The position numbers were made by a program, and so were the translations under genes. A stretch of DNA of 64,000 bases, from positions 19,633 to 83,632 of the forward strand of contig ONQT01000006.1 in the NCBI GenBank assembly GCA_900320045.1, read 5' to 3'. Below the pieces are notes generated by a model. It saw only the letters and a program-made list of their open reading frames with translations. It was not told where the DNA came from and made no database searches. The DNA comes from an uncultured Prevotellaceae bacterium. Its GTDB lineage: Bacteria; Bacteroidota; Bacteroidia; Bacteroidales; Bacteroidaceae. Shown piece by piece: positions 11,900 to 51,202 of the stretch; position 1 is the first letter of the stretch, and each line of letters starts with the position of its first letter.

Positions 11900-14368
11900 A
11901 TGAAACGCATACTCATCGTCCTCACCATCCTCTTTTCCGTTAGCTGCGGCTCGTTTGCAGCACGTTATCGGTTGTGGTATGACCGTCCTGCTATGACGTG
12001 GACACAGGCATTACCCATCGGCAATGGCATCATGGGTGGCATGGTGTTTGGCACACCTGCCGTAGAGCGCATCCAACTGAATGAGGAAACGCTCTGGGCC
12101 GGACAACCTAACAATGTCATCAACCCCTCGGCGAAAGCCAATCTGCCCAAGGTACGCCAGCTCATCTTCGAAGGCAAGTACAAGGAAGCACAGAAGTTGG
12201 CCGATGACAAGGTGATGCCTCATTCTGCAGGCAAGAATATGGGTATGCCTTATCAGCCTTTCGGCGACGTCTACATTTCCATGCCCGGCCACGCCGACTA
12301 TAGTGACTACGAGCGCTGGCTGGACCTAGACAGCGCCAAGGTGGTGAGCCGCTATGTCTCCAATGGCGTCGAGTACCGCCGCGAGGTAACGGCGCCCATG
12401 GGACCGATTCCCGTCGTCACCGTTCACCTAACAGCAAACCGACAAGGAATGCTGACCTTCACCGCCCACATGACATCACCCCACGAGAACGTACTTATCG
12501 GTACCGACACCAACGCCACCTTATATAATAATGTGTCCGACGGTTCCCCCGTCGGAGACGCCTATCTCCACGGTGTTTCTTCCAAGCACGAGGGTCTGAA
12601 GGGCAAGGTTCGCTTTATGGGGCGCATGGCCGTTGAGACCAACGGCGGGACAGTAACCTGCTCGAATGGTGTCATCAGCGTGACTGGGGCCGACGAGGCG
12701 GTGGTGTTCGTTGCCATCGGCACGAACGTCAAGAATTACAAGGACATCACCGGCGACGAGGTTGCACAGGCCAAGGAACGCTTGGAAGCAGCCCGCAACT
12801 GGGGATACGGTCGTCTGCAGACCGTCCATACCAATGTCTATACGGAATACTACAACCGCGTCAAGTTGGACTTGGGCGAAGACCACTACCCTCGCCTGTC
12901 GATGGACAAGCGCATCAAGCAGTTCAGCGCCACCACTCCCAAGAGCGCTCCTACTCCCGACGGTTCTCCGTCAAGCCTCCCCGACAACCACCTCGTAGCC
13001 ACCTACTTCCAGTTCGGACGCTATCTCCTCATCTCGTCGTCACAGCCCGACAACATGAACCCCGCCAACCTGCAGGGCATCTGGAACGACAAGATGTTTC
13101 CCTCGTGGGACTCGAAATACACGACGAACATCAATCTGGAGATGAACTACTGGCCGGCAGAGGTGACGAACCTCTCGGAACTGAACGAGCCGCTGTTCAA
13201 ACTCATCCGTGAAGTAAGCGAACAAGGCAGGCAGACGGCCCGCGACATGTATGGTGCCGACGGATGGGTGCTGCATCACAACACGGACCAATGGCGCATC
13301 ACCGGTCCTGTAGACCATGCCCAGACGGGATTGTGGCCGATGGGCGGTGCATGGCTATGTCGCCACTTGTGGGAACATTATCTTTATACGCGCGATGAAG
13401 CCTTCCTTCGTCAATACTACCCTATCATGCTGGGCGCTGCCACCTTCTTTACGCAGACCCTGCAGAAACACCCGACCAAAGGCTGGCTGGTAGTCTGTCC
13501 GGGAGAGTCGCCAGAGCATGGCGGCAAGGGTCGCGGCACAGCGCTGGATGCCGGTGTAACGATGGACAACCAACTGGTGCGTGAACTCTATACCAACGTC
13601 CTCGAGGCTGCTAAGATTCTGGGCGACGACAATGCTCAATTGTCAATCATCAAAGCTCAATTGAAAGAGCTTGCTCCCATGCAGATAGGCAGCTGGGGAC
13701 AGTTGCAGGAATGGCTCGACGACCTCGACGACCCGAAGGACGACCACCGTCACTTCTCGCACCTCTATGGGCTGTTCCCCTCTAACCAGATATCCCCCTC
13801 TAAGACACCCGACCTTTGGGAGGCTGCCCGCAAGTCGCTAACGGCCCGTGGTGACGTCTCGACAGGCTGGAGCATGGGCTGGAAAGTATGCTCATGGGCC
13901 CGACTGTTAGACGGCGAGCATGCCTACAAGCTCATCAGGGACCAGTTGACGCTGACGGCCGACACCTTCCTGATATTCGGTGCCACGAAGCAACGTGGCG
14001 GCACGTATCCCAATATGTTCGACGCCCATCCGCCCTTCCAGATTGACGGCAACTTCGGCTGTACGGCAGGTATCGCCGAGATGCTGATGCAAAGCTACGA
14101 CGGCTTCATCTACCTGTTGCCTGCCCTTCCTGCTGTATGGAAGGACGGCAGCGTCAAGGGACTGGTGGCCCGCGGCGACTTCGAGATAGACATGAACTGG
14201 AAGGACGGCAAGCTGACACAGGCCGTGGTGCGCTCGAACAAGGGCGGCAATTGTCTGCTGCGCAGCAACACGCCACTTAAGGGCAAAGGACTGAAAAAGA
14301 CAAAAGAAACAAACCTGTACACGCTGTCTACCAAGGCGGGCGTGGCATATACGATTCAAGGACTATGA
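11900..14368 (+). CDS. GH95 alpha-L-fucosidase/alpha-L-galactosidase
   Basis: [48 protein letters not shown]. Confidence 0.93.
12530..12556 (+). repeat. In-frame hairpin element, family A
   Basis: AATGTG TCCGACGG TTCCC CCGTCGGA, read as NVSDGSPVG. Confidence 0.75.
12929..12975 (+). repeat. In-frame hairpin element, family B
   Basis: ...ACT CCCGACGG TTCT CCGTCAAG, read as [16 protein letters not shown]. Confidence 0.75.
13636..13663 (+). repeat. In-frame heptamer microrepeat (TCAATTG-like x4) in GH95
   Basis: TCAATTG TCAATCA TCAAAGC TCAATTG. Confidence 0.7.
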
Positions 14369-15822
14369 AGAAACTTATGATGATACTGAGCCTTGCGTTG
14401 CTGACGGTGTCGGCACAGGCAGGCAAGCCATGGGACAATGGCAAACTTTGTGTTTCGGATAACCAGCGTTATCTGCAGTTTGAGAACGGACAGCCCTTCT
14501 TCTGGCTGGGCGAGACGGGATGGCTGTTGCCGGAACGTCTGGACCGCGCCGAGGCGGAGTGGTATCTGCAGAGCTGCGCCAAGGCGGGCTACAATGTCGT
14601 GCAGGTGCAGACCATCGACGGTGTTCCTGCCTATAACATCTACGGACAGATGTCGAACCCTGACGGCTGGAACTTCAATGACATCAACAAGAAGGGTGTC
14701 TACGGCTATTGGGACCACATGGACTACATCATCGACCGTGCCGCCGACCACGGCATCTATATCGGCATGGTGTGCATCTGGGGCGGACTGATAAAGGACG
14801 GCAAGCTCTCTGTAGAGGATGCCAAGAAATACGGCACGTTCCTCGCTAACCGCTACAAGAACAAGCCCAACATCATCTGGTTTATGGGCGGCGACATTCA
14901 GGGCGACATCAAGCCTGAGGTCTGGGAGGCGCTGGCCACCACCATCAAGAGCATCGACAAGAACCATATCATGACCTACCACCCCCGTGGTCGCTATACG
15001 TCTGCCCGCTGGTGGAGCAAGGCCAAGTGGCTCGATTTTCACACCTTCCAGAGCGGACACCGTCGCTATGGACAGCGCATGGGTAATGCCGACTACCCCA
15101 TTCCCGACAATACGGAGGAGGACAACTGGATGTATGTGGACTCCACCTGGAAGTACAATCCCATCAAGCCCGTGCTCGATGCAGAGCCCAGCTATGAGGA
15201 TATTCCCATTGGTCTGCACGACCCCAACGAGGGTCGCTGGCAGGACTATGACGTGCGCCGCTATGCCTACTGGAGCGTCTTTGCCGGAAGCTGCGGACAC
15301 ACCTACGGCCACAACGCCATCATGCAGATGCTGAAGCCCGGCTATCCCACCTCGTACGGCGATGCCGGCGACGTGAAGACCTGGTATCAGGCCCTGCACG
15401 ACCCTGGGTTCTCGCAGATGCAGTACCTGAAGTGCCTCATCCTGTCGTTCCCCTACTTCGAACGTGTGGCTGACCAGAGCATCATTCACGACAACGGTGT
15501 ACAGTACAACCGACTCATTGCCACACGAGGCAACGACTACCTGTTGGTGTACAACTACAACGGCAACAGCATGAAGGTTGACCTGACGAAGATCAGCGGC
15601 TCCAAGAAGAACGTCTGGTGGATGACGGCCGCTACAGGTAAGCTGAAGTACCTCGGCGAATTTGACTCCAAGGTGCTCACCTTCCGCTATCACCCCCAGT
15701 CGGCCCGCATCGAGGACGGTGTCCTCATCGCCATCGACACCGCTAAGGACTATCTGAAGAAGGACCAGACGAATCTCTCGCCCGACGGCTACAAGGCCAA
15801 AGCCCGCGACCTGAACGAGTAA
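14365..15822 (+). CDS. GH140 apiosidase-like protein (DUF4038 plus C-terminal beta domain)
   Basis: [54 protein letters not shown]; signal peptide. Confidence 0.88.
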
Positions 15823-15864
15823 CGAAATTCGCAACCATAACAAACGAAGCGAAGAATTAACACT

Positions 15865-16521
15865 ATGTCTGACATAAAGATTAAGTTCAGCGTGCATCAG
15901 AATCCGCTGAAAGACGAGCAGGGACGGACGACGTATCAGGTGCGGCAGGATACGCATGGAACGGTAACGACCAAGATGCTGGAGGAAGAACTGGCCCTGC
16001 ATGGTTTGCAGAACAACTTCACGCTCGACGGAGCCGTGGAATGGCTTAAGAAAGTGATGGTATCGCACATGAACTTCAACCGTCGTATACACGTGGAGGG
16101 CCTGGGAATGTTCTCGCTGAGCATTGGTCTGAAACCCGTCGTCGACGAGGACGGCACCGTACACAAGCGCATCGTTACCGACCCCAACGACATTACGGGC
16201 AACGAGGTGGAGGTGACGGGCATTAACTTCGTGCCCGACAAGGAATTCCTGGACTATGCCAAGCAGCAACTCTTGTACTTCGAGAACTCTGCTCCGCGCG
16301 GTTTCGTGGGACATTCGGAATGGCACGAGGACGAAAAACTGAGACAGGAAGTTATCGGATATCTTACAGAGCACAAGTATCTTACATGTCCCCTCTTCAT
16401 GAAGTTGTGGCACGTTACGCGCTACAAAGCAGAGCAGCTATTAGCACAACTCTGCGAAGGAGAGGACGCCATCCTGGTGCGCCAGAAGCAAGCAAACACG
16501 ATTTTCTATTATCTGAAGTAG
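15865..16521 (+). CDS. Bacteroidota HU-like DNA-binding protein with C-terminal winged-helix-like domain
   Basis: HU-type core RRIHVEGLGMFSLSIG ... INFVPDKEF; C-terminal YLTEHKYLT..F..L....RYKA...L..L. Confidence 0.78.
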   Translation: MSDIKIKFSVHQNPLKDEQGRTTYQVRQDTHGTVTTKMLEEELALHGLQNNFTLDGAVEWLKKVMVSHMNFNRRIHVEGLGMFSLSIGLKPVVDEDGTVHKRIVTDPNDITGNEVEVTGINFVPDKEFLDYAKQQLLYFENSAPRGFVGHSEWHEDEKLRQEVIGYLTEHKYLTCPLFMKLWHVTRYKAEQLLAQLCEGEDAILVRQKQANTIFYYLK

Positions 16522-16523
16522 GA

Positions 16524-16709: not shown

Positions 16710-16724
16710 ACTTTGCTTACTAAT

Positions 16725-16750
16725 CAGCCTTGACGGGAAGGCTGTTCTTT
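16725..16750 (+). terminator. Probable intrinsic terminator
   Basis: CAGCCTT-GACGGG-AAGGCTG followed by TTCTTT. Confidence 0.55.
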
Positions 16751-16763
16751 GGGGGCCTGCGAG

Positions 16764-16809: not shown

Positions 16810-19800
16810 ATGAAAAAACTACTGACAATCATGTGTCTTGCGCTACTGCCGATGCTGGTGGCAGGCAAGCAGAAAGCAAGAGTTGCGGACGTCAGCCTCT
16901 CGTGGCTGAGAGTAGAGAATATGGACTGTCCTCTGGGCATTGATACCGACACGCCTCGGTTCTCGTGGCTCATCAGAAGCGAGAAGCAGAACGTGCGCCA
17001 GACGGCCTACCAGATCATCGTCTCTACCGACAAGGGCGAGATGTGGAACTCCGGCAAGGTGGACTCGGACCAGCAGTTGTGGGTGCGCTACGGCGGACAG
17101 CCGCTGAAGAGTGCCACGCAATGCACGTGGAAAGTGAAGGTCTGGACGACGGCCGGCGAGAGTGCGTGGAGCGAGGAGGAGCGCTTCGGCATCGGCCTGC
17201 TGAAGGAGAGCCACTGGACAGGGCGCTGGATTGGTCTGGAGCGGCTGATGCCCGGCGAGGAGCGAGGACTGCACACCCGACTGGCAGCCCGCTACGTCCG
17301 AAAGGAGTTCGAGCTGGACAAGCCCGTCAAGCGCGCCATCGCCTATGTGGCCGGCATCGGACTGCATGAGTTGCATGTCAATGGAGTCTGTTACAATGCC
17401 AACGTCCTGATGCCCATGCCTACGGACTACCGCAAGACGGTGCTCTACAACACCTACGACATCACGGGAGGACTGAAGGAAAAGAACTGCATCGGACTGG
17501 TGCTGGGCAACGGCCGGCTGTTCCCCATGCGCCAGAACAAGCCCTACAAGGCACCGGTCTTCGGACTGCCGAAGTGTCGCATCAACATCCTCATCGAGTT
17601 TACCGACGGCACCACCAAGCGTATCTCAACTGACGAAAAATGGAAGATAACGGCCAATGGCCCTATCCGCTCGAACAACGAATACGACGGTGAGGAGTAT
17701 GATGCCCGTAAGGAACTGACGGGTTGGGACAAGCCAGGCTACGACGACCATACCTGGCTACAGGCCGAGCGTACCGCCATACCGCTGGGCACCCTTCGGG
17801 CGCAGATGGCGCCGGGCATGGTGATAGATCCCCAGACACAACAGCCGCTGGTGGTCAGCCAGAAGCAGAATGCCCAAGGCAAGCAGGTTGTCATCTACGA
17901 CTTCCACCAGAATATGGCGGGATGGATAGGCTTTACACCCACAGGCCATGCCGGCGACACCATCCGCGTAAAGTATGCCGAGAAGCTCAACGCCGACGGC
18001 ACGCTGTACCTCGACAACTTCCGCGACGCCCGCTCGGAGGACATCTACGTCTGCGGTACTGTGCCCGCTGGTTCGGCCAGCGGGATTGCCGAATGGCACC
18101 CCACCTTCAGCTATCACGGTTTCCGCTACGCTCAGGTGACGGGACCGGCCAAGGACCTGCGTGCCTATACCGTCAGCGACGATATGGCAACGACGGGAAC
18201 TTTCGAGTGCTCGGATGCCACGCTGAACCAGGTGATGAAGAATGCCTGGTGGGGCATCTATTCTAATTATAAAGGTATGCCCGTCGACTGTCCGCAGCGC
18301 AACGAGCGTCAGCCGTGGCTGGGCGACCGCACCATGGGCTCGCTGGGCGAGAGCTTCGTCTTCAACAACGAGCGGCTGTACACCAAGTGGATGCGAGACA
18401 TCTGTGAGTCACAGCGCGAGGACGGTGTCTTCTGCGACGTGGCTCCCGCCTACTGGAACTACTACAACGACGACGTGACATGGCCTGCCGCCCTACCCTT
18501 CGGTTGCGACATGCTGTATCGGCAGTACGGCAACCGCGAAGCCATCGACAAGTCGTATCCGTATATCAAGCGCTGGCTGCAACACCTGATGGCTGACTAT
18601 CTGAAGGACGGCATCATCACCAAAGACACCTATGGCGACTGGTGCGTGCCGCCCGAGAAGCTGGAGCTGATCCATTCGCAGGACCCGGCCCGCAAAACGG
18701 ACGGCAGCCTCATCTCGACGGCCTACGTCATCCGCGTCCTGCAACTGCTGGAGCAATGGGGATGCGAGGCCGACACCTGGAAACCTATTCGTCTGAAACT
18801 CACCGATAGCTTCAACCGCCACTTCCTGACCGTCAAGGAAGGAACGTCACCGCGGCCGGGGCATCCATTGTACCCCGACTCCGTCTTCTACGGCAACAAC
18901 ACCGCGACCGCCAACCTGCTGGCATTGTCGTTCGGCATCGTTCCCGAGAAGTACCGCCAAGAGGTGACGAAGAATGTCGTTGAGAACATCATCGTCAAAA
19001 ACAATGCCCACGTGCCCTGCGGCGTCATTGGCATCTCCTGGCTGCTGCGCGGCCTCTCAGACAATGGTTTCAGCGACATCGCCTACATGATTGCCACCCA
19101 GCACAGCTATCCCTCCTGGGGCTATATGGCCGAGAATGGTGCAACGACCATTTGGGAGCTCTGGAACGGCGACAAGGCCTCTCCCCGCATGAACAGCGGC
19201 AACCACGTCATGTTGCTGGGTGACCTGATTACCTGGTGCTACCAGTATCTGGGCGGCATCCGTACTGTGGGCAGCGGTTCTGCCGTTGCCTATAAGCGCT
19301 TTATTCTCAAGCCCGACTTCAGCATCCAGGACTGCTCGTTTGCCAACGTCAGCTACCTTTCTCCCTATGGCACGATTATCAGCAACTGGAAAAAGACACT
19401 ACAGCATGTTGAGTGGGACGTGCAGGTTCCCTGCAACACCACCGCGGTCGTCTGCTTCCCCGACGGCACCACCCAGGAAATCGGTTCCGGCAAATACCAC
19501 TTCTCCTGCGACATCCCGACGGCTCACCCCGCCATCCTGAAGGACGAGTTCCTGTACGAGAAAGCCTCTTTCCCGCAATGTCACTCGGCCAGCATCGTGG
19601 AGACCAAGAAGGGCGACCTCGTCGCCACTTATTTCGGCGGCAAGCATGAGCGCAATCCGGATGTCTGCATCTGGGTGAGCATCAAGAAGAAAGGCAGTAA
19701 CGAATGGAGTAAGCCCATCCTCGCCGCTGACGGTGTGTTTACATTAGAAACAAAAGAAGCCGAAATCGCAGGCATCAACGCTGAAAGCACTCCTGCTTCT

Positions 19801-25205: not shown

Positions 25206-28200
25206 ATGAAAAGAATACAGACCGCCCTTATATCGTTTTTTACTGTGTTCAGCGGTTTTGCCGCTGACATCCCCGCTGACGTGATGAACCGCATCTACCA
25301 AGAGGTGCGCACCCCTTATAAATATGGTATGGTGGTAGCACCTACGGACAACTACCACAAGATAGACTGTCCGACGGTGTTCCGCATGGGCGACAAATGG
25401 CTGATGACCTACGTTGTCTATAATGGAAAGGACGGACTGGATGGTCGCGGGTACGAGACGTGGCTGGCCTCGAGTGACGACCTGCTGCACTGGAAGACGG
25501 AAGGTCGCCTGCTGTCGTATAAGGACGACGGTTGGGACATGAACCAGCGCGGCGGTTTCCCTGCCCTCATTGACTGGACCTGGGGTGGCAGCTATGGTAT
25601 CTCCAAGTTCAAGGGCAACTACTGGATGTCGTACATCGGCGGGCACGGCACAGGCTACGAGGCGGTGCGCGAACCGCTCAACATCGGTATGGCATGGACC
25701 AACGGTGACATTACCAAGGCGCACGAGTGGCAGTCGGACAACACGCCCCTGCTGTCCATACAAGACAAGGACGTGCAATGGTGGGAACAGCTGACGCAAT
25801 ACAAAAGCGCCATCTACGACCTAAATGCCCAATCGGAGAAGACAATTCAGAAAGCCGCCAAGGGCAAAAGTCGTAAGGGTAAGAACATGCTACCCGCTGA
25901 ATTGCGCAAGTATCGCTTCCTGATGTTCTACAATGCCGGTGGCATCAATCCAGCTAACTACCTCAAGGCCGAGCGTATCGGCATTGCTCTAAGCAATGAC
26001 CTCAAGAAATGGAAGCGTTACAAGGCGAACCCCGTCTATTTCCACGAGGCTCCAGGCATCATCACCGGCGATGCCCAGATTGTCCGCATGTCCCCTCCCG
26101 CCACGACTCCCGACGCTTCTCCGTCGGGTGCCCCCCTCTACGTCATGTTCTACTTCTCGGCCTATAACCCCGACCGCAAGTACAACGCCTACAACACCTT
26201 CGCCGTCAGTCGCGACCTCATCCACTGGCAGGACTGGACGGGAGCAGACCTCATCGTCCCTTCTAAACCCTACGACGAGATGTTTGCCCACAAGAGCTAC
26301 GTGGTAAAACACGACGGTGTAGTGTATCACTTCTACTGCGCCGTCAACAATGACCAGCAGCGCGGCATTGCCGTGGCCACCAGCGTTCCCATGGGGCGTA
26401 GCGAGGTGCACTTCCCCGCCCCCGAGCGTAAAGGCCGCCGCACCATCATCTCGCTCAACGACGATTGGACGGCTTCGGTCGTTGGTCGCGATTCCATTGC
26501 GACGAAGGTCAACCTCCCCCATAACTTCGACGACTACTACGGCTATCGTCAGTTGCGTCACGGCAACCTGCACGGCAAGGCTATATATAATAAGGTGTTC
26601 ACCACCGAGAAGCGTGACGGTCGTCGCTACTTCCTGCAGTTCGAGGGTGTAGGCACTTATGCTCAGGTCATCCTCAACGGCCATAAGTACCCCGAAGAAC
26701 TGGTGGGTCGTACCGTCTGGACACTCGACGTGACCGACCATCTGAAGAGCGGTGAGAACTCACTACAGGTCAACGTAGATCACCCCGCCATGGAAACTGC
26801 ATCGCCATGGGTATGTGGAGGTTGCAGCAGCGAGTGGGGCTTCTCGGAAGGTAGTCAGCCTTTCGGCATTTTCCGTCCCGTCAGTCTGGTCGAGACCGAT
26901 GCAGTACGCATCAAACCCTTCGGTGTCCACATCTGGAACAACGCTGCTTGCGACAGTGTCTTCATTGAGACGGAAATCAGGAACTACACTAAGGAGCAGC
27001 AGACCATCGAGTTGGTTAACAAGTTCTCCTTTGCCAGCGGCAAGCAGGTGTTCCGTCATGCAGAGACCGTCACGATAAAGGCTGGCGACAGCAAGACGTT
27101 CCGCATGGCAGAGCGCATAGGGAACGCTCACCGCTGGAGCATCAGCGACCCCTACCTCTATAGTCTGGCCACGATGATTAAGCGCATCGTTCCCTCTGGC
27201 TCTGACGGTTCCAAGTCCAACATCGTCACCACCGATGAGGTGCGCACGCCCTTCGGTATCCGCAGTATCTCGTGGCCCGTCCTCCGCCAGCGTTTGGCGC
27301 TCAGCGGTGTTTCCCCCGCAACCACCGTTCCCGCCACTACTCCCGACGGTTCTCCGTCGGGCGACAACCGCTTCTACCTCAACGGCCAGCCGGTCTTCAT
27401 CAACGGCACCTGCGAATACGAACACCTGTTAGGCCAGAGCCACGCCTTCAGCCCCGAGCAGATACGCTCTCGCATGAAGCAAATCACCAATGCTGGCTTC
27501 AACGCCCTGCGCGAGGCTCACCAGCCACACAACCTACTCTACCAGCAGCTGTGCGACGAGCAGGGCGTCCTGTTCTGGAGCCAGTTCTCTGCACACATCT
27601 GGTACGATACGCATAAGTTCCGCAACACCTTCAAGCGTCTGTTGGTACGCTGGATTAAGGAGCGCCGCAACTCGCCCAGCATCATTCTCTGGGGACTGCA
27701 GAACGAGAGTGTGCTGCCCAAGAAATTTGCCGAGGAGTGTTCGGATATTATCCGCTCCCTCGACCCTACCTGTCGTGACCAACGCGCCATCACCACCTGT
27801 AATGGCGGCGAGGGTACTGACTGGAACGTCATCCAGAACTGGAGTGGCACCTACGGCGGCTCTGCCGACAACTACGACAAAGAGCTACTTCAGCCGCAGC
27901 AGTTGCTGAACGGCGAGTATGGTGCCTGGCGCACCCTCGACCTACACGGCGATGCCAAGTACAGCGAAGAGTCGTTCACCCGTCTGTTAGAGACCAAAGC
28001 CCGCCTGGCCGAAAAGGCGTACGGTCTTCCTGTAGCCGCAGCTACCATGAATCAGGACCTAAATTTGACCGGCGGTTCTGCCGTCGACAAGCATGGCGTC
28101 TGCGGCCACTTCCAGTGGATTTTCAACTCCCACGACAATCCTGGTCGTGTGCAACCCGACGGAGCTCTGCGCCGCATCGACAAGATAGGTCCCATCAACT

Positions 28201-29405
28201 ACAAGGGTCTCGTCACCGCTTGGGAGGAGCCCACCGCCGCCTACTATATGTACAAACATCGCTATGCCGCCACCACTCCCGACGCTTCTCCGTCGGGTAC
28301 TCTCCCTACCGCTGCCGACCGCAACCGCGACCTCGTGAAAGGTGCCGAGGGCTATCGTTACCTCTACCGTATCAACTGCGGCGGCGATGCCTTCACCGAT
28401 GAGTTCGGCCAGCAATGGCAGGCCGACGACACGCTGCACTGCCACTCGTGGGGACAGGACTTCGAGGGTATCAATGCCCTACAGGCCTCACAGCGACATA
28501 TCACCACTGGCATCCGCGGCACACGGAGCGACGAGCTGTTTCAGTTCTTCCGCTTCGGTCGCCACCGCCTCTGGTACGACCTGCCGGTCGCAACCTTCGG
28601 CAAAACCGAAGGCCACACTATAACCAGCGCTCCTACTGTGGTCAGCGGTTTTGCCGCTGACACCACCCAATATCGCGTGGAGCTATACTTCTGCGAACCA
28701 TGGCACGGCCGTGAAGCCTCGGAGACCGCCGACTACGAAGGCCTGCGTATCTTCGACGTCGCCATCAATGGCGAGACCGTCGTCAACGACCTCGACCCAT
28801 GGGCCGAGGCGGGCTACTGCGGAGCCATGAAACGGGTGGTATACGCCAAGGCCGTGAACGGTCGACTGCACATCTCCTTCCCCGAGATAAAGGCCGGCCA
28901 AGCCGTCATCTGCGGCTTAGCGGTAGCCACAAGCACTCCCATCAGCACCGCCACGACTCCCAAGGTTTCTCCCGAGGGTCTCTCCTGGCACGCTCTCGAC
29001 ACCGATACCATCGCCAAGTTGCCGAAGGAGCTATTGCCCGCAGATACCGAGGCACGTCCTGCCAGTGTCTATGAGCCCATCAGCATCAAGGACCTCAAAG
29101 CCAAGGGCGTCAAGCTCAGCGCCCAGAACCTCCGCGGCACCACCTTCCTCATTACCCCAGGCTTGGGTCAGGAGTATGCCCTGCGCTTCCGCTACAAGAA
29201 TACGACAGGCGAGCCTATCACGGCACGTATGACCGTCATCGACTCCAAGCAGGCCGTGCTGGTAGACCGCGACGTGACGTTCCCGCCGACGCCCAACAAG
29301 TTCAAGATGCTCTCCACGACCACTGGCACGCAGATCAATGCCGGCACCTACCAGTTGCACATCGACGCCAAGGACGTGGAGTTCAAGGAGGTGGAGATAC
29401 AATAA
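25206..29405 (+). CDS. Multimodular GH137 (beta-L-arabinofuranosidase) + GH2 + malectin/CBM57-like protein (BT0996-like)
   Basis: N-terminal TPYKYGMVV..DCPTVFR propeller-like module; GH2 motifs FEGV, REAHQPH, LWGLQNE, NGEYG; malectin-like YRINCGG, VELYFCEPW, RIFDVAING. Confidence 0.85.
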   Translation: MKRIQTALISFFTVFSGFAADIPADVMNRIYQEVRTPYKYGMVVAPTDNYHKIDCPTVFRMGDKWLMTYVVYNGKDGLDGRGYETWLASSDDLLHWKTEGRLLSYKDDGWDMNQRGGFPALIDWTWGGSYGISKFKGNYWMSYIGGHGTGYEAVREPLNIGMAWTNGDITKAHEWQSDNTPLLSIQDKDVQWWEQLTQYKSAIYDLNAQSEKTIQKAAKGKSRKGKNMLPAELRKYRFLMFYNAGGINPANYLKAERIGIALSNDLKKWKRYKANPVYFHEAPGIITGDAQIVRMSPPATTPDASPSGAPLYVMFYFSAYNPDRKYNAYNTFAVSRDLIHWQDWTGADLIVPSKPYDEMFAHKSYVVKHDGVVYHFYCAVNNDQQRGIAVATSVPMGRSEVHFPAPERKGRRTIISLNDDWTASVVGRDSIATKVNLPHNFDDYYGYRQLRHGNLHGKAIYNKVFTTEKRDGRRYFLQFEGVGTYAQVILNGHKYPEELVGRTVWTLDVTDHLKSGENSLQVNVDHPAMETASPWVCGGCSSEWGFSEGSQPFGIFRPVSLVETDAVRIKPFGVHIWNNAACDSVFIETEIRNYTKEQQTIELVNKFSFASGKQVFRHAETVTIKAGDSKTFRMAERIGNAHRWSISDPYLYSLATMIKRIVPSGSDGSKSNIVTTDEVRTPFGIRSISWPVLRQRLALSGVSPATTVPATTPDGSPSGDNRFYLNGQPVFINGTCEYEHLLGQSHAFSPEQIRSRMKQITNAGFNALREAHQPHNLLYQQLCDEQGVLFWSQFSAHIWYDTHKFRNTFKRLLVRWIKERRNSPSIILWGLQNESVLPKKFAEECSDIIRSLDPTCRDQRAITTCNGGEGTDWNVIQNWSGTYGGSADNYDKELLQPQQLLNGEYGAWRTLDLHGDAKYSEESFTRLLETKARLAEKAYGLPVAAATMNQDLNLTGGSAVDKHGVCGHFQWIFNSHDNPGRVQPDGALRRIDKIGPINYKGLVTAWEEPTAAYYMYKHRYAATTPDASPSGTLPTAADRNRDLVKGAEGYRYLYRINCGGDAFTDEFGQQWQADDTLHCHSWGQDFEGINALQASQRHITTGIRGTRSDELFQFFRFGRHRLWYDLPVATFGKTEGHTITSAPTVVSGFAADTTQYRVELYFCEPWHGREASETADYEGLRIFDVAINGETVVNDLDPWAEAGYCGAMKRVVYAKAVNGRLHISFPEIKAGQAVICGLAVATSTPISTATTPKVSPEGLSWHALDTDTIAKLPKELLPADTEARPASVYEPISIKDLKAKGVKLSAQNLRGTTFLITPGLGQEYALRFRYKNTTGEPITARMTVIDSKQAVLVDRDVTFPPTPNKFKMLSTTTGTQINAGTYQLHIDAKDVEFKEVEIQ
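25242..25268 (+). repeat. Family-A hairpin element inside the signal peptide
   Basis: ACTGTG TTCAGCGG TTTTG CCGCTGAC, read as TVFSGFAAD; 26/27 identical to 28635-28661. Confidence 0.85.
26100..26129 (+). repeat. In-frame hairpin element, family B
   Basis: GCCACGACT CCCGACGC TTCT CCGTCGGG T, read as ATTPDASPSG. Confidence 0.85.
27333..27362 (+). repeat. In-frame hairpin element, family B
   Basis: GCCACTACT CCCGACGG TTCT CCGTCGGG C, read as ATTPDGSPSG. Confidence 0.85.
28062..28088 (+). repeat. In-frame hairpin element, family A (degenerate)
   Basis: AATTTG ACCGGCGG TTCTG CCGTCGAC, read as NLTGGSAVD; 6-bp stem. Confidence 0.6.
28269..28298 (+). repeat. In-frame hairpin element, family B
   Basis: GCCACCACT CCCGACGC TTCT CCGTCGGG T, read as ATTPDASPSG. 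Confidence 0.85.
28593..28661. repeat. Back-to-back doublet of family-A hairpins
   Basis: Minus copy 28593-28619 (AGTGTG GCCTTCGG TTTTG CCGAAGGT) and plus copy 28635-28661 (ACTGTG GTCAGCGG TTTTG CCGCTGAC). Confidence 0.8.
28950..28979 (+). repeat. Degenerate family-B element
   Basis: GCCACGACT CCCAAGGT TTCT CCCGAGGG T, read as ATTPKVSPEG. Confidence 0.6.
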
Positions 29406-32363: not shown

Positions 32364-35291
32364 TTAATAACCGAAGGTATCTTCAGGAGTGAGGCGCTTG
32401 ATAGGACCTATCTTCTCCAGCGACTTGATGTCCAGTTCCTTCTCATTACCCAGTATCACATAGCGCCACGTCTTATGTGCCATATGCTTCTGCTCGAAGT
32501 TGACAATATCCTTGAGCGTGACCTTGTCCAGCGACTTGTAGATACGTTCATTGCGGTCGTAGTCGATACCCAGAGCCTTCGCATCCAACCAAGCGTACAG
32601 CAGGTGCGCCTTCGTGGTGCGGTTACTGGCAATCTTCTTCGTCACAGCCTCCTTAGCAATCTGGAAAGCGCCTTCGTTCTGCGGGATATTGTCCAGTATC
32701 TCCTGGAACTGTCGGACGCAGTCCATCATCTTGTCGTTCTGCGAAATGATATGTACCAAGGCATACTCGTTCTCGTCCTTGAAGTCGGGATCGATATAAC
32801 CGGCATAGGCATTGTATGCCAAACCGCGCGACTCACGGATTTCCTGGAACACCACACTACCCATGTTGCCACCGTAGTATTCGTTGAAGAGCGCCTTGAC
32901 GGCGGCCTGCTCGGGATTCCAGGGCTGCTTCTCGATGTGGTACATCTGCATGTAGATGTTCTTCGCATCGTAGGGAGCCAGCAGAATTTCATTTGCTGGG
33001 GTCATCTGCATGGTGTAATGCTTGGCCTGCGGAGCGGGTGTTTTTCCGACGGCTGAACCGTCGGATACAGTATGGGCGGTAAGGGCGGCGGTTAGGTCGC
33101 TATCCGTCATCGGGCCGTAATAGAGCACGGTGTGCTCATACTCCTTCAAGTGCTTCAGCAAGTCTAACAAGTCCTGCGGATTGGTCTTCTGCAACTGCTC
33201 GCCCGTCAGGATGTTGCGGGCACGGTTATAGGTGCCATACAAACCGTAGGTACGCAGCACGCTGAAGTTTGCACGCTGGTCGAGCTTGTTGTCGGCACGG
33301 GACTTGTTGACGATGGCAATATACTGCTGATATGAGTCGGTATCAACCTTGGCACGCTGCATCAAATGTTCCAGCAGTTTCAGGGCCTGCGGCATATTCT
33401 CGCTAAGACCCGTCAACCAGACGGTCATATTGCGAGCTTCCACCGAGATATTATAGCTGCACGCCAGCTTATAGAACTGCTGTCGAACCTGCTCGGCCGT
33501 CAGCGAGTCGGTACCTATATAATTAAGGTACGAGGCGGCATAATTATAACCAGTATTTACCTCGTCGCCGAAGTCATAGCGGAAGGCCAGCTCAAAGCGG
33601 CCGTTCTCCTTGTTCTGGACGGAGACAACAGGTAAACCGTTGTCCGCCGTGCTGAACGTCAGGTCGCGTTGGAAGTCGACGAAACGCGGTTCGATAGGCT
33701 TCACCTCCATCTTCTGGATGTCCTGCACAAACTGGCTTGTGGTATCGCGGTTCGTGGGGATGGGCGTAATCTCGGGCTTGTCAATCTTCTTCTGATTGGG
33801 GTCAACACCCTGGCGCTTATACACAGCGACATAGTTGTCGCGGAAGTGGCGGTTGGCGAAGTCGACAATCTGCTGCTTGGTCATTCCGCTGATGCGGTCA
33901 AGAAAGTGCACACTCTGTTCCCACGGCTCGCCATTGACAAATGCCTGGAGGAAGAAGCTGGTTCGTGCGATGTTATACTCCATGGCATGATAGAAGTCCA
34001 GCTTCAGGTTATTGACAACACTGGGTAGCAGGTCGTCGCTGAAGTCGCCCTTCTTCAACTTCTCCAGTTCGCCCAACAGCAAGGAACGCACCTCGTCGAG
34101 TGTCTGTCCCTCACGAGGCGTGCCGGTCAGCTGGAAAGTAGAATAGTCCATCAGCAGCTCGGAAGAAGACCGTGCCTCTACCATTTTCATCTGCTGGTTG
34201 ATGTCCAGGTCGAGTAGTCCTGCCTTACCGTTGGTCAGCATATAATCAATTACCCGCAACGTGTCAGCCTGCGGTGATGCTGCCTTGTCGAAGCGCCAGC
34301 CCAACAGCAGCTGTTCAGCCTCCAGACCGATGACAGTGGTATCGACGGCATGTGTCAGCTCGGGCTGTTCGGAGAACTTAGGCTGTTCCACCTGCTCCTC
34401 GGGAGCAGCCTCCCAGTCGCCGAAATATTTGTCAATCTGCTCGATGACCTCATCGGGGTCAAAGTCGCCAGACAGACAGATGGCGGTATTGTTAGGCACA
34501 TACCACTTCTTGAAGTAGTTCTTGATGTTTGTGATGCTGGGATTTTTCAGATGAGCCTGTGTTCCGATGGTCGTCTGAGTACCATAGGGATGTGTGGGGA
34601 ACAGTTTGGTCATCATCGCATCGTACACCTTCTCATCATCGTCAGCCAGATAGATGTTATACTCCTCGTACACAGCCTCCAACTCGGTATGGAAACCGCG
34701 GATGGTCATGTTCTTGAAGCGGTCAGCCTCTATCTTCAGCCACGCCTCCACCTGGTTCGACGGGATGTCCTCGACATAGCAGGTCCGGTCGTGCCAGGTA
34801 TTGGCATTGGTTCCCTCGGCACCAATCATGGACATCATCTTGTCGTACTCGTTGGGGATAAAGTACTTGGCAGCCAACTGCGACACAGAGTCAATCTCGT
34901 GGTAGGCCTGGCGGCGCTCCTCGGGATCAGTCAATGTACGGTACTTCTCGTAGCGAGCCTCAATGTCAGCCAGCAACGGAGCTTCAGCCTTAGGGTCGGT
35001 CACACCATACTTGTCAGTTCCCTTGAACATCAAGTGCTCCAGATAGTGTGCCAAGCCTGTCGTCTCAGCAGGGTCGTTCTTTGAACCCGTTCGCACCGCA
35101 ATGAAAGTCTGGATGCGAGGCTTCTCGTCGTTAACACTCAGATACACCTTCAACCCATTCTTCAGCGTATAGATACGCGTCTTCATCGGGTCATCCTTGA
35201 CCTCTTCATACTTGTACTTGCTGCATGCCGACAAGAGCAGGATGCCGACAAGTACCGCAGGCAGTAATGCAAAATGCTTCATGTGTTTCAT
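32364..35291 (-). CDS. M16 (insulinase-family) zinc metallopeptidase, lipoprotein
   Basis: HYLEHLMFKGT (HxxEH), lipobox LLSAC, FQEIRESRGLAY. Confidence 0.92.
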   Translation of the reverse strand: MKHMKHFALLPAVLVGILLLSACSKYKYEEVKDDPMKTRIYTLKNGLKVYLSVNDEKPRIQTFIAVRTGSKNDPAETTGLAHYLEHLMFKGTDKYGVTDPKAEAPLLADIEARYEKYRTLTDPEERRQAYHEIDSVSQLAAKYFIPNEYDKMMSMIGAEGTNANTWHDRTCYVEDIPSNQVEAWLKIEADRFKNMTIRGFHTELEAVYEEYNIYLADDDEKVYDAMMTKLFPTHPYGTQTTIGTQAHLKNPSITNIKNYFKKWYVPNNTAICLSGDFDPDEVIEQIDKYFGDWEAAPEEQVEQPKFSEQPELTHAVDTTVIGLEAEQLLLGWRFDKAASPQADTLRVIDYMLTNGKAGLLDLDINQQMKMVEARSSSELLMDYSTFQLTGTPREGQTLDEVRSLLLGELEKLKKGDFSDDLLPSVVNNLKLDFYHAMEYNIARTSFFLQAFVNGEPWEQSVHFLDRISGMTKQQIVDFANRHFRDNYVAVYKRQGVDPNQKKIDKPEITPIPTNRDTTSQFVQDIQKMEVKPIEPRFVDFQRDLTFSTADNGLPVVSVQNKENGRFELAFRYDFGDEVNTGYNYAASYLNYIGTDSLTAEQVRQQFYKLACSYNISVEARNMTVWLTGLSENMPQALKLLEHLMQRAKVDTDSYQQYIAIVNKSRADNKLDQRANFSVLRTYGLYGTYNRARNILTGEQLQKTNPQDLLDLLKHLKEYEHTVLYYGPMTDSDLTAALTAHTVSDGSAVGKTPAPQAKHYTMQMTPANEILLAPYDAKNIYMQMYHIEKQPWNPEQAAVKALFNEYYGGNMGSVVFQEIRESRGLAYNAYAGYIDPDFKDENEYALVHIISQNDKMMDCVRQFQEILDNIPQNEGAFQIAKEAVTKKIASNRTTKAHLLYAWLDAKALGIDYDRNERIYKSLDKVTLKDIVNFEQKHMAHKTWRYVILGNEKELDIKSLEKIGPIKRLTPEDTFGY
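33045..33071 (-). repeat. In-frame hairpin element, family A
   Basis: ACTGTA TCCGACGG TTCAG CCGTCGGA, read as TVSDGSAVG. Confidence 0.8.
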
Positions 35292-48600: not shown

Positions 48601-51202
48601 GAAGGTTCCCTCCTTCACCTATAGCTACTTCGACAGTAGCGTGATACCCACCTATATGGCTCCTGTACTGTTCAGGAACAACCACAGAGTTATGATTCGA
48701 GGTGCCAAGGCTGCAGCAGCACCACGAACCGACATGATGGTCATGAAACAGACGACCGCCATCGGTTCTTTCGACGTCAGGGGCAACGAGGAAACGGCAG
48801 AAGCCCACGATGAAGTCATCACCGTAGGCTATGGAGAGCAGCAAAAGGAAGAAAAGGCTGAGGAAGTGCAGCTCCGCGAAAACTTGCAGGAGACCGCTTT
48901 CTGCTACCCCACGCTAACCACGGCGACCGACGGCACCGTCACCATGAAGTTTACCTTGCCCGAGAGTCTGACGACCTGGCGCTTCATGGGTATCGCCAAT
49001 ACTTCTGATATGCTCTATGGAAGCATCAGTGGCGAAGCGATAGCCCAGAAGGACATCATGATACAGCCCAACATGCCGCGCTTTATTCGTATGGGTGACG
49101 AAGCCCGTATTTCGGCACGCATCTTCAATACCACAGAGCGAGCAATCAGCGGTACGGCCAAGCTACAACTCATTGACCCCGCTACCGAGCAGGTTGTCCT
49201 CGAACAGCAGCAGCCGTTCGCCGTTGCCGCACAGCAGACCGCTGCCACGACCTTCGCCGTCCAGAGTGCAACGTTCCAGGAGTCTTTGCTCATCTGCAAG
49301 GTCGTTGCTACAGGCGATGGTTTCAGCGATGGCGAGCAGCACTACCTGCCCATCCTACCCGACCGCGAATACGTCACCAAGACCGTTCCCTATACGCAAC
49401 ACGAGCCTGGCGTCAAGACCGTTGACCTCACCAAGCTCTTCCCGCAGGGCACCAGCCAGCAGAAACTGACGATAGAATACACCAACAATCCCGCATGGCT
49501 CATGGTGCAGTCGTTGCCTACCTTGGGACAGCCTTGGGAACATAGCGCCATCGACCAGGCAGCATCCTTCTATAGCAATATGTTAGCCAAGACGCTGTTA
49601 GGACAGAGTCCGCAGGTGAAGAATATCTTCGAACAATGGAAGCGTGAGACAGGTGCCGAGACATCGTTAACCTCTCACCTCGCACAAAACGAGGAACTGA
49701 AGGATCTCGTCTTGGAGGAAACACCATGGATAGCGGCTGCCGACCGTGAGGAGGAGCAGAAGCAACGCCTTGCCGACTTCTTCGACGAGAACGGCATGGA
49801 CAACCGCCTGTCGACGGCATTGGAAAAACTTCAGAAGCTACAGCATGCCGACGGTTCCTTCTCGTGGTACCCTGGCATGGAGGGCAGCACATTCATCACG
49901 GTTGCTGTCGAGGAAATGCTGGCTCGCCTCAACATCCTGACTGGCACGTCAACAGTGGTCAATGGTTCTGCCATTGACATCACTCCCATCTACGACAAGG
50001 CTTTCAACTACATGGGCCAGCAGATGGTTGACCTGGTAAACAAGATGAAGAAAGAGGAGAAGAAGGGCATCAAGCAGTCGTTCCCCTCATTCACCGCCCT
50101 GCGCTGGCTTTACATCTGCGCCATCGACGGCCGTACGCAGTCGTCCAGCGTCAAGTCGGCCAACAACTACCTCATCAATCTCCTGAAGAAGGACATCAAG
50201 CGTCAGACCATCTACGAGAAGGCTATGTCCGCCATCGTCCTCGCTCAGCATGGTGAGAAAACCAAGGCTGCCGAGTATGTCAAGAGCCTGAAGGAATATA
50301 CCGTCTATACCGAGGAGATGGGTCGTTACTACGACACCCGCCGCGCGTCTTACTCTTGGTACGACTACAAGATTCCCACCGAGGTGGCAGCAATCGAGGC
50401 CATCCAGCGCGTGACACCGAACGATGCACAGACGGTCGACGAGATGCGCCGCTGGCTGTTGCAGGAGAAGCGCACCCAGACATGGGACACGCCTATCAAC
50501 AGCGTCAACGCCATCTATGCCTTCCTGAATGCAACGCCACACTCTCACAGAGAGAACGGCAACAGCCAAGCGCTGACGACCACCAACGCCCAAACAGTCC
50601 TCGCCATCGATGGTTCTCCCATCGATACTCCGAAAGCGACAGCCGGCATCGGTTATGTAAAAACGGTGGTTGACGCTTCCGCTGTCAACAACGCCCGCAC
50701 CTTCACCGCTACCAAGACCAGTGAGGGGACTTTGTGGGGTGCCGTCTATGCGCAGTTCCTGCAGAAAACCAGCGACATCGAGTCATCGACAAGCGGCATC
50801 ACCATCCAGCGCGAAGTGATGGCGGCAGGTCCGCAATCCACATCTCTCACCGCTCAGCCCTCAACACCCACCGCGCTCAAGGTCGGCGACCGCATCAAGG
50901 TGCGCATCACTATCAACACCACACGCGACCTCGACTTCGTACAGGTCATCGACCGCCGGGCAGCGTGCATGGAACCTGTCGGTCAACTGTCGGGCTATCG
51001 GAACGGTGCCTACTGTTCTCCCAAGGACAATGCCACACACTATTTCTTCGGCATGCTGGCCAAGGGTCGCCATGTCGTCGAGACGGAATACTACATAGAC
51101 CGTTCCGGACGCTACGAGACGGGCACATGCACCGTGGGGTGTGCCTACGCTCCCGAATACCGCGCCACAGCACCTTCACTCACCATCAACGTCAACGAAT
51201 AA
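45605..51202 (+). CDS. Bacterial alpha-2-macroglobulin family protein
   Basis: DRSIYRPGQTV, VEEYKRPTF, LRENLQETAF, LPESLTTWRF, PRFIRMGD, LQHADGSFSW, AYAPEY; -7 element TATCTTTG at 45573-45580. Confidence 0.9.
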   Translation: MKRMQYPLWTTVQQSFRMLTTALLFMPLTMMGQSYESLWKQVEQAQNKDLPQTAMTQLRKMETKATKEKAYGWLLRSSLLYAKLQAEVAPDSLAPAVKRLEQREQAAKDVALKAVYDVVLAKVYETNQQLTDNWKAQSDSYRRQAMTRPDVLAQTQIDSYVPFVVKEKDSECFGHDLLSVVGMELNEWKWMSNYYSQIGNRPAACLSACQAVSTIEGMDSLLNIYGNLPEAGEIAIKRYELMSDDRFTAAEKNSWIEQSLNRWGTWKRSNILRNAQTALNNPTYQVHIDNTVHEVGKPQMIQLTNLRNIERLTMHVYRTTLAGDTKLNINNKDDLKQIQKVSTLLNEHTKTLSFTGHASYDFFRDSLELNSLPAGVYVLMFRTEQDTQVKRMLYFVSGIRVISQAQPHNMMRYVVVDATTGQPVPNAQLRMTFHKGNDTHYKTLACNQQGEVTYNYEKERPSSVFAFTSTDNCCPEFNNYGNYSYYERQYNVEHTTLFADRSIYRPGQTVHVAAIAWKEVSATENAAISSKQLTLTLRDANYKVVSEQQVTTDRYGKCAADFTLPTGQLNGHFTIQCQGASVAFNVEEYKRPTFQVEFADYKQSYHNGDTIQVQGKALTYAGVPVQGAKVKYTVKRRVAFWWMSYSRYWNNGYIGHSLKDEVLNEGEAVTEEDGTFCANVPMVLPTDLGNRSMFYHFVVEADVTDQGGETHSGTLSLPLGNKSTVLTCDIPQRIRNDQMPQITFTRRNAAGNEIAGTVRYRMDNGKWKECAANAHLSPLTSRLSSGQHRIEAICEQDTLNTSFVVFSLNDKKPAAETHDWFYVSDTQFPNDGKPVTVQVGSSDPNLHIVYGIYAGDQQIESGAVDKDAALINRKFTYNESYGNGLLLTFAWVKDGQCYRHSQFIQRPMPDKQLKLQWETFRDRLTPGQQEEWRLTIKKPDGTAADASFMAVLYDKSLDAIKQHHWSFTPTSYLPQPGTSWQWRSWSSIGLSGAKHYQSLKVPSFTYSYFDSSVIPTYMAPVLFRNNHRVMIRGAKAAAAPRTDMMVMKQTTAIGSFDVRGNEETAEAHDEVITVGYGEQQKEEKAEEVQLRENLQETAFCYPTLTTATDGTVTMKFTLPESLTTWRFMGIANTSDMLYGSISGEAIAQKDIMIQPNMPRFIRMGDEARISARIFNTTERAISGTAKLQLIDPATEQVVLEQQQPFAVAAQQTAATTFAVQSATFQESLLICKVVATGDGFSDGEQHYLPILPDREYVTKTVPYTQHEPGVKTVDLTKLFPQGTSQQKLTIEYTNNPAWLMVQSLPTLGQPWEHSAIDQAASFYSNMLAKTLLGQSPQVKNIFEQWKRETGAETSLTSHLAQNEELKDLVLEETPWIAAADREEEQKQRLADFFDENGMDNRLSTALEKLQKLQHADGSFSWYPGMEGSTFITVAVEEMLARLNILTGTSTVVNGSAIDITPIYDKAFNYMGQQMVDLVNKMKKEEKKGIKQSFPSFTALRWLYICAIDGRTQSSSVKSANNYLINLLKKDIKRQTIYEKAMSAIVLAQHGEKTKAAEYVKSLKEYTVYTEEMGRYYDTRRASYSWYDYKIPTEVAAIEAIQRVTPNDAQTVDEMRRWLLQEKRTQTWDTPINSVNAIYAFLNATPHSHRENGNSQALTTTNAQTVLAIDGSPIDTPKATAGIGYVKTVVDASAVNNARTFTATKTSEGTLWGAVYAQFLQKTSDIESSTSGITIQREVMAAGPQSTSLTAQPSTPTALKVGDRIKVRITINTTRDLDFVQVIDRRAACMEPVGQLSGYRNGAYCSPKDNATHYFFGMLAKGRHVVETEYYIDRSGRYETGTCTVGCAYAPEYRATAPSLTINVNE
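47925..47955 (+). repeat. In-frame heptamer microrepeat (CTCACCT)x4
   Basis: CTCACCT CTCACCT CTCACCT CTCGCCT CTC, read as HLSPLTSRLS. Confidence 0.85.
49952..49978 (+). repeat. In-frame hairpin element, family A
   Basis: ACAGTG GTCAATGG TTCTG CCATTGAC, read as TVVNGSAID. Confidence 0.8.
50606..50689 (+). repeat. Two further family-A-like hairpins in the macroglobulin gene
   Basis: ATCGATGG TTCTC CCATCGAT (50606-50626, lacks the leader) and ACGGTG GTTGACGC TTCCG CTGTCAAC (50663-50689). Confidence 0.6.

Follow-up and report, generated by a model that had tools for sequence, protein, structure and literature searches.

A family of short tagged hairpins with variable stems, many of them in frame within genes, in a rumen Prevotella

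In a 64,000-nucleotide (nt) stretch of DNA (hereafter the window; G000:C41:19633-83632, with positions counted from its first letter) from the metagenome-assembled genome (MAG) of a rumen Prevotella (2.31 Mb in 75 contigs, 79% complete, 52% GC; labelled G000), we analysed a family of short hairpins composed of a tag, an 8-bp stem and a 5-nt loop, many of which are translated in frame as part of unrelated proteins. A first-pass annotation, made from the letters of the window alone, had proposed 11 copies of this hairpin. We found 100 members across the genome, and comparison with outgroups and with near-identical strains showed that copies are insertions or replacements that vary in presence and in tandem number. 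We judge it somewhat better than an even bet (roughly 55%) that the hairpins are short palindromic DNA elements restricted to this lineage (rumen Prevotella), similar to repetitive extragenic palindromic (REP) sequences and Rickettsia palindromic elements (RPEs), which spread as DNA and are recognised by their shape and tag. This reading fits the constant tag and apex, the linkage between tag and loop, the recurrence of stem variants, the derived and polymorphic copies, the reuse of hot spots and the patchy distribution.

Structure and abundance of the hairpin family

Family members were defined by the core GGTTYNSCC together with pairing of the six further flanking positions, one mismatch being allowed; bases outside the stem, where the leader or tag lies, were not used for selection. 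The core occurred 339 times on both strands of the MAG, and 100 of these occurrences were members, 73 of them perfectly paired. The number of further pairs was bimodal with a sharp peak at exactly six, that is, a stem of exactly 8 bp, and at least five further perfect pairs were present in 82 of the 339 cores, compared with about 0.2% of all other pentaloop cores closed by 2 bp. Genome-wide, 5-nt loops were the only loop class in excess (184 hairpins vs 69–98 for other loop sizes).

When synonymous codons were shuffled within each of the 1,698 genes defined by open reading frames (ORFs), 30 shuffles gave on average 2.1 sense and 0.9 antisense hairpins, and never more than 8 in total, vs 69 sense and 12 antisense hairpins (81 in total) observed in the genes. 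Shuffled codons do not reproduce the hairpins; therefore pairing is a property of the nucleotide level, and the excess is not a protein-motif artefact. The first-pass annotation had allowed that codon-shuffled genes might be equally rich in hairpins; with about 3 against 81 they were not, and the structured family that it had described proved to be real. A covariance model, which it had also suggested, was trained on 54 copies, all outside the window, and recovered nine of its 11 window copies (E = 3e-10 to 7e-6), whereas the copies at 28062 and 50663 were marginal (E 0.07 and 0.12).

The general form of the hairpin is N6-GG/TTYNS/CC-N6', and the whole unit measures about 30 nt (21 nt plus a tag of 6–9 nt). 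Position -3 of the tag is G in 97–98% of copies, position -2 is T or C and position -4 is mostly T, with a similar profile in coding frame-0 copies and in all remaining copies, non-coding ones included. G(-3)Y(-2) preceded 96 of the 100 hairpins vs 52 of the 239 other cores (p = 2e-40), so that the tag predicts pairing. The tag consensus is CT-N-ACTGTG or, in a second subfamily, CYCGCY, and tag and loop are linked, since GT-type tags are combined with loops ending in G (63 vs 7) and GC-type tags with loops ending in C (22 vs 4; p = 6e-12). Subfamily 1 thus joins a GTG tag to the loop TTYNG and is read G-S/F-A, while subfamily 2 joins a GCY tag to TTYNC and is read G-S/L-P.

Within the stem, about 70% of copies have a C beside GG, and purines prevail at the two positions before it; the three outer pairs vary freely, and at most stem positions all four types of pair occur. 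Among the 100 copies, 61 different left arms were counted. With the apex and the tag constant, the earlier statement that stems covary while structure, loop and leader are kept thus extends to the entire family. Some stem variants recur at several loci (GTCAGC, in 11 copies, and CCTTGC), which fits copying from master types. The base right after the stem is A in about half of the copies, and similarity between copies ends about 9–15 nt to the left of the stem and 1–3 nt to its right. Stem mismatches are G-T (about 13) and A-C (about 11) in roughly equal numbers, and decay looks neutral.

Among the copies, no complementarity of the tag to the 3' flank or to the loop was found, and Rfam 15 gave no match at gathering threshold anywhere in the window. 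The tag was also considered as a target-site duplication and rejected as such: CCCGCC resembles an internal CCCGCT for the commonest stem only, and it is absent after the right arm of other stems. In several cases a copy follows an incomplete tandem duplicate, with an 18-nt period, that comprises tag, left arm and GGTTCT and is read T-V-V-x-G-S twice (G000:C24:11002-11028, C38:145417-145443 and C65, minus strand, copy TCTACAGTG-GTCAGC...GCTGAC, locus L102:84-117:-). These 18-nt duplicates suggest slippage within the element.

Genomic placement, insertions and allelic variation

Scored on the longest-ORF gene set, 80 of the 100 copies lie inside ORFs: 58 in sense frame 0, ten in other sense frames and twelve antisense, the sense share of intragenic copies being about 85%. 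Frame-0 copies are read T-V-x-x-G-S/F/L-A/P-x-x, and the bias towards the sense strand and a single codon register, first noticed in the window, was reproduced genome-wide (58–59 of the 100 copies); at loci of other Prevotella, 35 copies were sense and 4 antisense. The 20 intergenic copies lie 7–20 nt past a stop codon, are oriented as the upstream gene and often form direct doublets within operons, e.g. grpE-dnaJ. The first-pass statement that there was no intergenic copy therefore holds for the window only. The same applies to the signal peptides that it had ascribed to all hosts: they are present throughout the window hosts, but genome-wide a crude test assigned one to 27% of hosts vs 39–47% of the background. 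Hosts across the genome are largely cytoplasmic housekeeping genes and include mutS, clpB, rho, grpE, ileS, pheT, trpC, trpF, prfC and lpd (names confirmed for several), and with no signal-peptide enrichment by this crude predictor, the suggested link to secreted proteins or their transcripts was abandoned.

The top strand of the hairpin lay on the locally C-rich strand in 68 copies vs 32 overall, and in 35 vs 5 where |GC skew| exceeded 0.04 over 80 kb (only 45% of the coding length being on that strand). At the level of host genes, 18 were lagging and 3 leading (p = 2e-4), and host genes on one contig were co-oriented beyond random genes (p = 0.008), independently of skew.

Orthologues and alleles, the latter compared through exact-sequence cluster look-ups and many of them from other rumen samples, showed that most copies are derived and lie in loops or linkers of variable length, and that at least one was made in place. 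In alpha-2-macroglobulin, the element at 49952 corresponds to a gap of exactly 7 amino acids (aa) in 11 of 11 orthologues and is preserved without change in strains whose proteins are 99.4% and 94.5% identical; both hairpins of this gene are unchanged in a strain with 94.3% nucleotide identity and 86% identity at 4-fold sites. In ClpB, G000 and the relative G056 share an element at the same site, the sole difference being a compensatory change of the outer pair (TCC...GGA vs CCC...GGG, T-A to C-G), while 4-fold sites of the two genes are 57% identical; six of seven third positions in the element are identical where 57% is expected. At this site other species are 3 aa shorter and T. thermophilus ClpB (PDB 1qvr) is 7 aa shorter. 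The element of the GH95 fucosidase lies within a 14-aa segment missing from the two orthologues that aligned (G015, G017), and its alleles vary between P and A in the loop. In MutS, three relatives have a short loop, C-L-Y-A-N-N-E, at the position of two elements and about 19 extra aa in G000, a segment without counterpart in Taq MutS. A MetH-like protein has 7 additional aa compared with G015 and with an allele 97.5% identical, and at the 50663 site the G000 protein is 3 aa longer than its orthologues. The claim that copies add short peptide loops was thus borne out, most copies being extra relative to orthologues. It does not extend to the copy at 50606, which shows no indel: here orthologues have a conserved [ILV]-D-G-x-P-[LIV]-E, and a 65%-identical species carries a 5/6 hairpin at the apparent (unaligned) counterpart site.

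Near-identical alleles differ as well. A 51-nt block containing one element and bounded by an imperfect 9-nt direct repeat distinguishes MutS alleles that are 99.4% identical, and Rho proteins 99.1–99.7% identical have one or two L-A-V-N-G-S-P-V units in a disordered N-terminal insert. The 10-aa unit D-A-R-V-Q-G-G-S-A-Q occurs one to three times across alleles of a 1066-aa protein on contig C25, a unit of about 13 aa zero to three times across alleles of a 1582-aa protein on contig C24, and elements are present or absent between alleles of beta-galactosidase and of the MetH-like protein. Boundaries of such indels are often 6–10-nt direct repeats that include half of the hairpin, and many population alleles carry pair-breaking substitutions. 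Sites are also reused: the ClpB loop holds a member of this family in G000 and G056 and a different hairpin type in G070, and near 12947 in the GH95 gene, alleles 97.5% identical carry either a perfect hairpin of this family or one of a second in-frame family (see below). The same MutS loop contains in G150 (L117) a different insert of about 25 aa rich in His, Glu, Ser and Tyr (S-H-E/S-Y-E units), so that this loop is a hot spot at which inserts of several kinds are found. A fold-back origin, with the left arm copied from an existing right arm, fitted one MetH-like allele pair and did not fit MutS, and was set aside.

Copies are missing from outgroup species, the family is patchy within the genus, and element positions are not conserved in the nearest species. 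The tag-plus-core pattern occurred 26 times in G000 and 0–1 times in each of 40 relatives. A stem-anchored pattern was found in 27 of 201 genus genomes (26 in G000, 16 in G150, 6–7 in five others), with the variable bases nearly always complementary and a reversed control of about 0. When one genome per prokaryotic species was scanned, the arms were paired in 29 of 31 Prevotella/Prevotellaceae MAG matches vs 7 of 49 chance matches in high-GC genomes. The reversed, uncomplemented control CCSNYTTGG-N6-GTGTCA gave 8 matches in G020 (same order) and about 0 elsewhere; the G020 matches may represent an unrelated repeat family there.

The window copies are listed in the table below. Of the nine clear copies, eight have an ACTGTG-like leader, and the one at 50606 has CTCGCC, the second subfamily's tag; folding energies of the nine are -10 to -18 kcal/mol (z = -3 to -5). 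Host proteins in the window are a GH95 fucosidase, a GH78-BNR protein, a GH2/malectin protein, an M16 peptidase and alpha-2-macroglobulin. Gene content, which includes PorV, SusC-like proteins and many glycoside hydrolases, points together with run metadata to a Prevotella of the rumen or bovine gut. Metagenome contigs compared with the window were too mixed with related organisms for scoring simple 21-nt indels, only complex replacements near elements being visible: a related strain's RNA-library contig has 74 extra nt just upstream of the 19264 element, and the 28062 region is replaced in related strains (115 nt vs 46 nt).

Hairpin copies in the window, with their hosts, tags, arms, translations and covariance-model matches
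Copy	Position	Hairpin	Strand	Tag	Arm/loop/arm	Translation	Match and remarks
GH95 fucosidase element	12530..12556	12536-12556	+	AATGTG	TCCGACGG/TTCCC/CCGTCGGA	N-V-S-D-G-S-P-V-G	E 4.8e-8
GH78-BNR element	18058..18084	18064-18084	+	ACTGTG	CCCGCTGG/TTCGG/CCAGCGGG		E 4.2e-6; -17.8 kcal/mol
GH78-BNR element, domain junction aa 820	19264..19290	19270-19290	+	ACTGTG	GGCAGCGG/TTCTG/CCGTTGCC		E 1.2e-6; one G-U pair
GH2/malectin signal-peptide element, codons 13-21	25242..25268	25248-25268	+			T-V-F-S-G-F-A-A-D	E 5e-8; outermost pair broken (T/C)
Degenerate relative	28062..28088		+	AATTTG	ACCGGCGG/TTCTG/CCGTCGAC		14.7 bits, E 0.07; z -2.3; 5/8 pairs
Malectin-domain antisense copy	28593..28619	28593-28613	-	AGTGTG	GCCTTCGG/TTTTG/CCGAAGGT		E 4.3e-6
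Consensus-type copy	28635..28661	28641-28661	+	ACTGTG	GTCAGCGG/TTTTG/CCGCTGAC	T-V-V-S-G-F-A-A-D	42.9 bits, E 3e-10; best match
M16 peptidase element, sense to minus-strand gene	33045..33071	33045-33065	-	ACTGTA	TCCGACGG/TTCAG/CCGTCGGA		E 1.5e-8
Alpha-2-macroglobulin element	49952..49978	49958-49978	+	ACAGTG	GTCAATGG/TTCTG/CCATTGAC		E 1.4e-8
Alpha-2-macroglobulin copy, GCY/CCC subfamily	50600..50626	50606-50626	+	CTCGCC	ATCGATGG/TTCTC/CCATCGAT	L-A-I-D-G-S-P-I-D	E 6.7e-6
Degenerate relative	50663..50689		+	ACGGTG	GTTGAC...GTCAAC		14.0 bits, E 0.12; z -1.7; bulged stem without GG/CC closure

Among the weak matches of the model was a second family of in-frame hairpins, ACYACT + CCCGACGG/TTCT/CCGTCGGG, in which the stem is conserved in sequence; it is read T-T-P-D-G-S-P-S-G, with window copies on the plus strand at 12947, 20197, 23332, 23398, 26100, 27333, 28269 and 29884. 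In an RNA-library contig from a different sample, 25141 and 28267 are linked by 916 bases of other sequence, as if in that strain about 2.2 kb of the GH2/malectin gene were absent or replaced; this contig also lacks the 33 nt at 23345-23377, corresponding to a single unit of an array of hairpin repeats. In alpha-2-macroglobulin, a 9-aa tandem repeat, N-A-T-P-H-S-Q-R-E (window 50528, aa 1661), occurs 1, 2 or 3 times in proteins 94.5–100% identical.

Origin and possible roles of the hairpins

As a DNA element, the unit would consist of a 5' tag, an 8-bp stem that allows any sequence in its outer six positions as long as they pair, and a constant C-GG/TTYNS/CC-G apex, usually with A after the stem. 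Copies would be written into transcribed DNA, either a short distance past stop codons (7–20 nt) or inside genes, and frame and orientation would be filtered by protein tolerance; intragenic survivors would be left mainly in one orientation and frame, where a small flexible loop may be tolerated in linkers, surface loops and disordered regions. Spread would be mediated by a factor for which the shape of the hairpin, its loop and its tag matter and the stem sequence does not, and perfect pairing could be kept either by the requirement of this factor or by arm-to-arm correction through template switching, while the strand bias may point to a replication-coupled step. A bolder proposal is that the hairpins form an undescribed class of Bacteroidota miniature mobile elements of ~30 nt, read by geometry, loop and tag through a single-strand enzyme in a replication-coupled process, placed on the sense strand of mainly lagging-strand genes, and continually making or removing loops of 7–13 aa and repeats in linkers, in proteins of housekeeping and of glycan degradation; we put this forward tentatively, as a possibility that falls short of even odds.

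Several observations weigh against spread as DNA elements. The 85% sense bias would not be expected of an element that acts purely as DNA, given that the antisense strand can likewise be read through in two frames. In most indels a few codons are replaced, in contrast to a clean cut-and-paste event, with no consistent target-site duplication, and at least the 50606 copy arose in place on ancestral residues. The preference for the C-rich (lagging) strand is moderately supported, because it was derived from the GC skew of MAG contigs and not from a known replication origin, and because contig C35, with 8 copies, runs opposite to it. Finally, no mobilising partner emerged from the 79%-complete MAG, in which we found no match to the Y1 transposases (PF01797) that include REP-associated tyrosine transposases (RAYTs), no reverse transcriptase and no small GIY-YIG (Ssn-like) gene. 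The sole PF01541 match lies in a 621-aa open frame, which is taken to be UvrC from its length, and for the one DUF559 (Vsr-like) gene in the MAG (C56:2582-2890) the family model scored at most 7.7 bits across the 1.9-kb locus, which is unflanked by the hairpins.

The first-pass annotation had pointed to a RAYT or IS200-type transposase flanked by the same hairpin. PF01797 is present in 108 of 201 genus genomes, and the 16 loci inspected were flanked by other hairpins (e.g. ATAG-CCCAGGGC) or by none; with no such gene in the genome itself and other cognate hairpins in relatives, this link was dropped. At the Y1 loci L085-L087, L093 and L095 (G150, G118, G082, G015), the flanks are either classical REP-like hairpins tagged with ATAG, e.g. 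CATAG-CCCAGGGC-N3-GCCCTGGG, or CAGGCGAATT-N3-AATTCGCCTG; the genus thus has REP/RAYT-type systems of its own, separate from the present family. A 178-aa ORF (G000:C37:5465-6064, locus L039) was likewise examined as a partner. It has an HExxH motif, belongs to no Pfam or NCBIfam family and has DUF4157/eCIS-core-like neighbours in a protein atlas; a direct doublet of identical hairpins (TCAGAC...GTCTGA) lies upstream and another at its 3' end, the latter translated and supplying the stop codon. With no family, DUF4157-like relatives and the same genomic context in all contigs found, this candidate was not convincing.

The sense bias leads to the first alternative, in which the hairpin (UGUG tag, 8-bp stem, UUCNG loop) functions as RNA and serves as a signal for binding or processing; its structure would be selected and its coding copies would be harmless loops. 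The signal might protect 3' ends, confer differential stability inside operons or act on transcripts of head-on genes. Consistently with this, sense copies predominate both in G000 and in other Prevotella, intergenic copies are co-oriented at a short distance past stops and inside operons such as grpE-dnaJ, and RNA-library contigs run through elements. The ClpB element, which differs between G000 and G056 by a compensatory pair alone, and the alpha-2-macroglobulin hairpins, unchanged across strains, also speak for selection on structure, but this conservation concerns few sites (P about 0.1 each for alpha-2-macroglobulin and ClpB, by our own estimate). An RNA signal sits poorly with the rapid turnover of copies between near-identical strains, with hosts that share no common function and with positions that are not conserved in the nearest species; moreover, G-U is no commoner than A-C among mismatches, many alleles contain pair-breaking changes, no Rfam family matched in the window, and the replication-strand bias would be left unexplained. 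We regard the functional RNA hairpin as unlikely, at about one chance in five. Spread as DNA and a role in RNA need not be exclusive, as with classical REPs, and in our analysis the sense bias, the post-stop placement and the one compensatory change keep an RNA role alive.

Slightly less probable still is that the hairpins are a mutational by-product without dedicated machinery, template switching perfecting quasi-palindromes, slippage duplicating them and short patches being copied between loci. Turn motifs such as V-D-G-S-P-V-D are quasi-palindromic because GTC/GAC, AGC/GCT and GGN/CCN are reverse complements, and the 50606 copy indeed stands in place on an ancestral I-D-G-x-P-I-E. The incomplete tandem duplicates of 18 nt described above, the indels bounded by short direct repeats with half a hairpin and the lagging-strand association, which is expected for hairpin-driven slippage, are all in keeping with such a process. 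It does not explain, however, a tag and loop that are constant across 100 loci, 20 of them non-coding, nor the tag-loop linkage and the sharp 8-bp limit, nor why about 87% of genus genomes, which encode the same protein families, are without the pattern. Quasi-palindrome correction and slippage nevertheless probably contribute to maintenance and to changes in copy number. That the hairpin is a codon-usage coincidence of a protein repeat motif, T-V-V-x-G-S-A-x-D, is very improbable even though 59% of copies share one frame and a similar peptide, since synonymous shuffling destroys about 96% of hairpins, non-coding, antisense and off-frame copies keep tag and loop, and partner residues track codon complementarity, N(AAC) being matched with V(GTT) and N(AAT) with I(ATT).

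If the hairpins are active DNA elements, few repeats known to have colonised coding sequence would be smaller, and they would be a steady source of length variation in loops and linkers, as seen in Rho, MutS, ClpB and glycoside hydrolases. Their polymorphic state in abundant rumen bacteria would make gain, tandem expansion and loss readable from public metagenomes, and hairpin plus tag would provide a defined substrate for finding a new structure-specific nucleic-acid enzyme or binding protein. In practice, the hairpins provide markers at strain level, and they also give rise to artefacts when Prevotella MAGs are annotated and aligned.

Comparison with known repeat systems

A full-text literature search turned up no report of elements of this kind in Prevotella or Bacteroidota. 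REPs carry tags at their ends and are located after ORFs, with occasional intragenic copies (Di Nocera et al. 2013, PMC3733652). Like REP/REPIN-RAYT systems, the present family is a short imperfect palindrome in many copies (100 copies of an 8-bp stem with a 5-nt loop in 2.3 Mb): both are 20–40 bp hairpins with a tag at one end, in about 100 copies, specific to species or strains, and both occur transcribed just downstream of ORFs between co-directional genes, with some copies intragenic (PMC3733652). In contrast to REPs, the tag here is YGYG, that is, (A)CTGTG or CYCGCY (core CTGTG or CGCY), and not the 5' tetranucleotide GTAG; stems vary and the loop is constant, where REPs show the reverse; copies are not predominantly extragenic, about 80% lying inside genes, mostly in frame; doublets are direct, not inverted; and no cognate RAYT flanked by the same repeats was found in the 79%-complete MAG.

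CGTC-tagged REPs correspond to the NTS/SRM repeats recognised by Ssn GIY-YIG single-strand nucleases (Chenal et al. 2025, PMC11893778). Their copies number in the hundreds and are read as single-stranded DNA by a site-specific protein (PMC11893778), and, like the family described here, they are hairpin repeats about 30 nt long whose flanks are oriented and not palindromic. The present copies differ in having no CGTC tag and no conserved stem sequence, and no small Ssn-type gene was found in the MAG.

Integron attC sites are recognised through a folded single-strand structure and show a strand bias relative to replication. Recognition by folded shape, which we propose for the hairpins here, and a strand bias would be common to both; attC sites, however, have conserved boxes at the base of a hairpin of 57–141 nt and flank gene cassettes, whereas in our family the conserved part is the apex.

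RPEs measure roughly 100–150 bp and are conserved in sequence. They share with the present family palindromic repeats in frame within unrelated, intact housekeeping genes, a peptide added at permissive sites and the lack of a known transposase; in G000, in-frame insertion into intact unrelated ORFs was seen in alpha-2-macroglobulin, GH95, MutS, the MetH-like protein and ClpB. For Rickettsia, the in-frame location of RPEs in genes was described by Ogata et al. (2000), as cited in PMC3733652. The units described here are of 21–30 nt (the 21-nt hairpin with its 6–9-nt tag), are defined by structure and not by a conserved sequence, and are still polymorphic within the species, in another phylum and with another lifestyle; it is this small size, together with the variable stem and the allele-level evidence, that sets the family apart.

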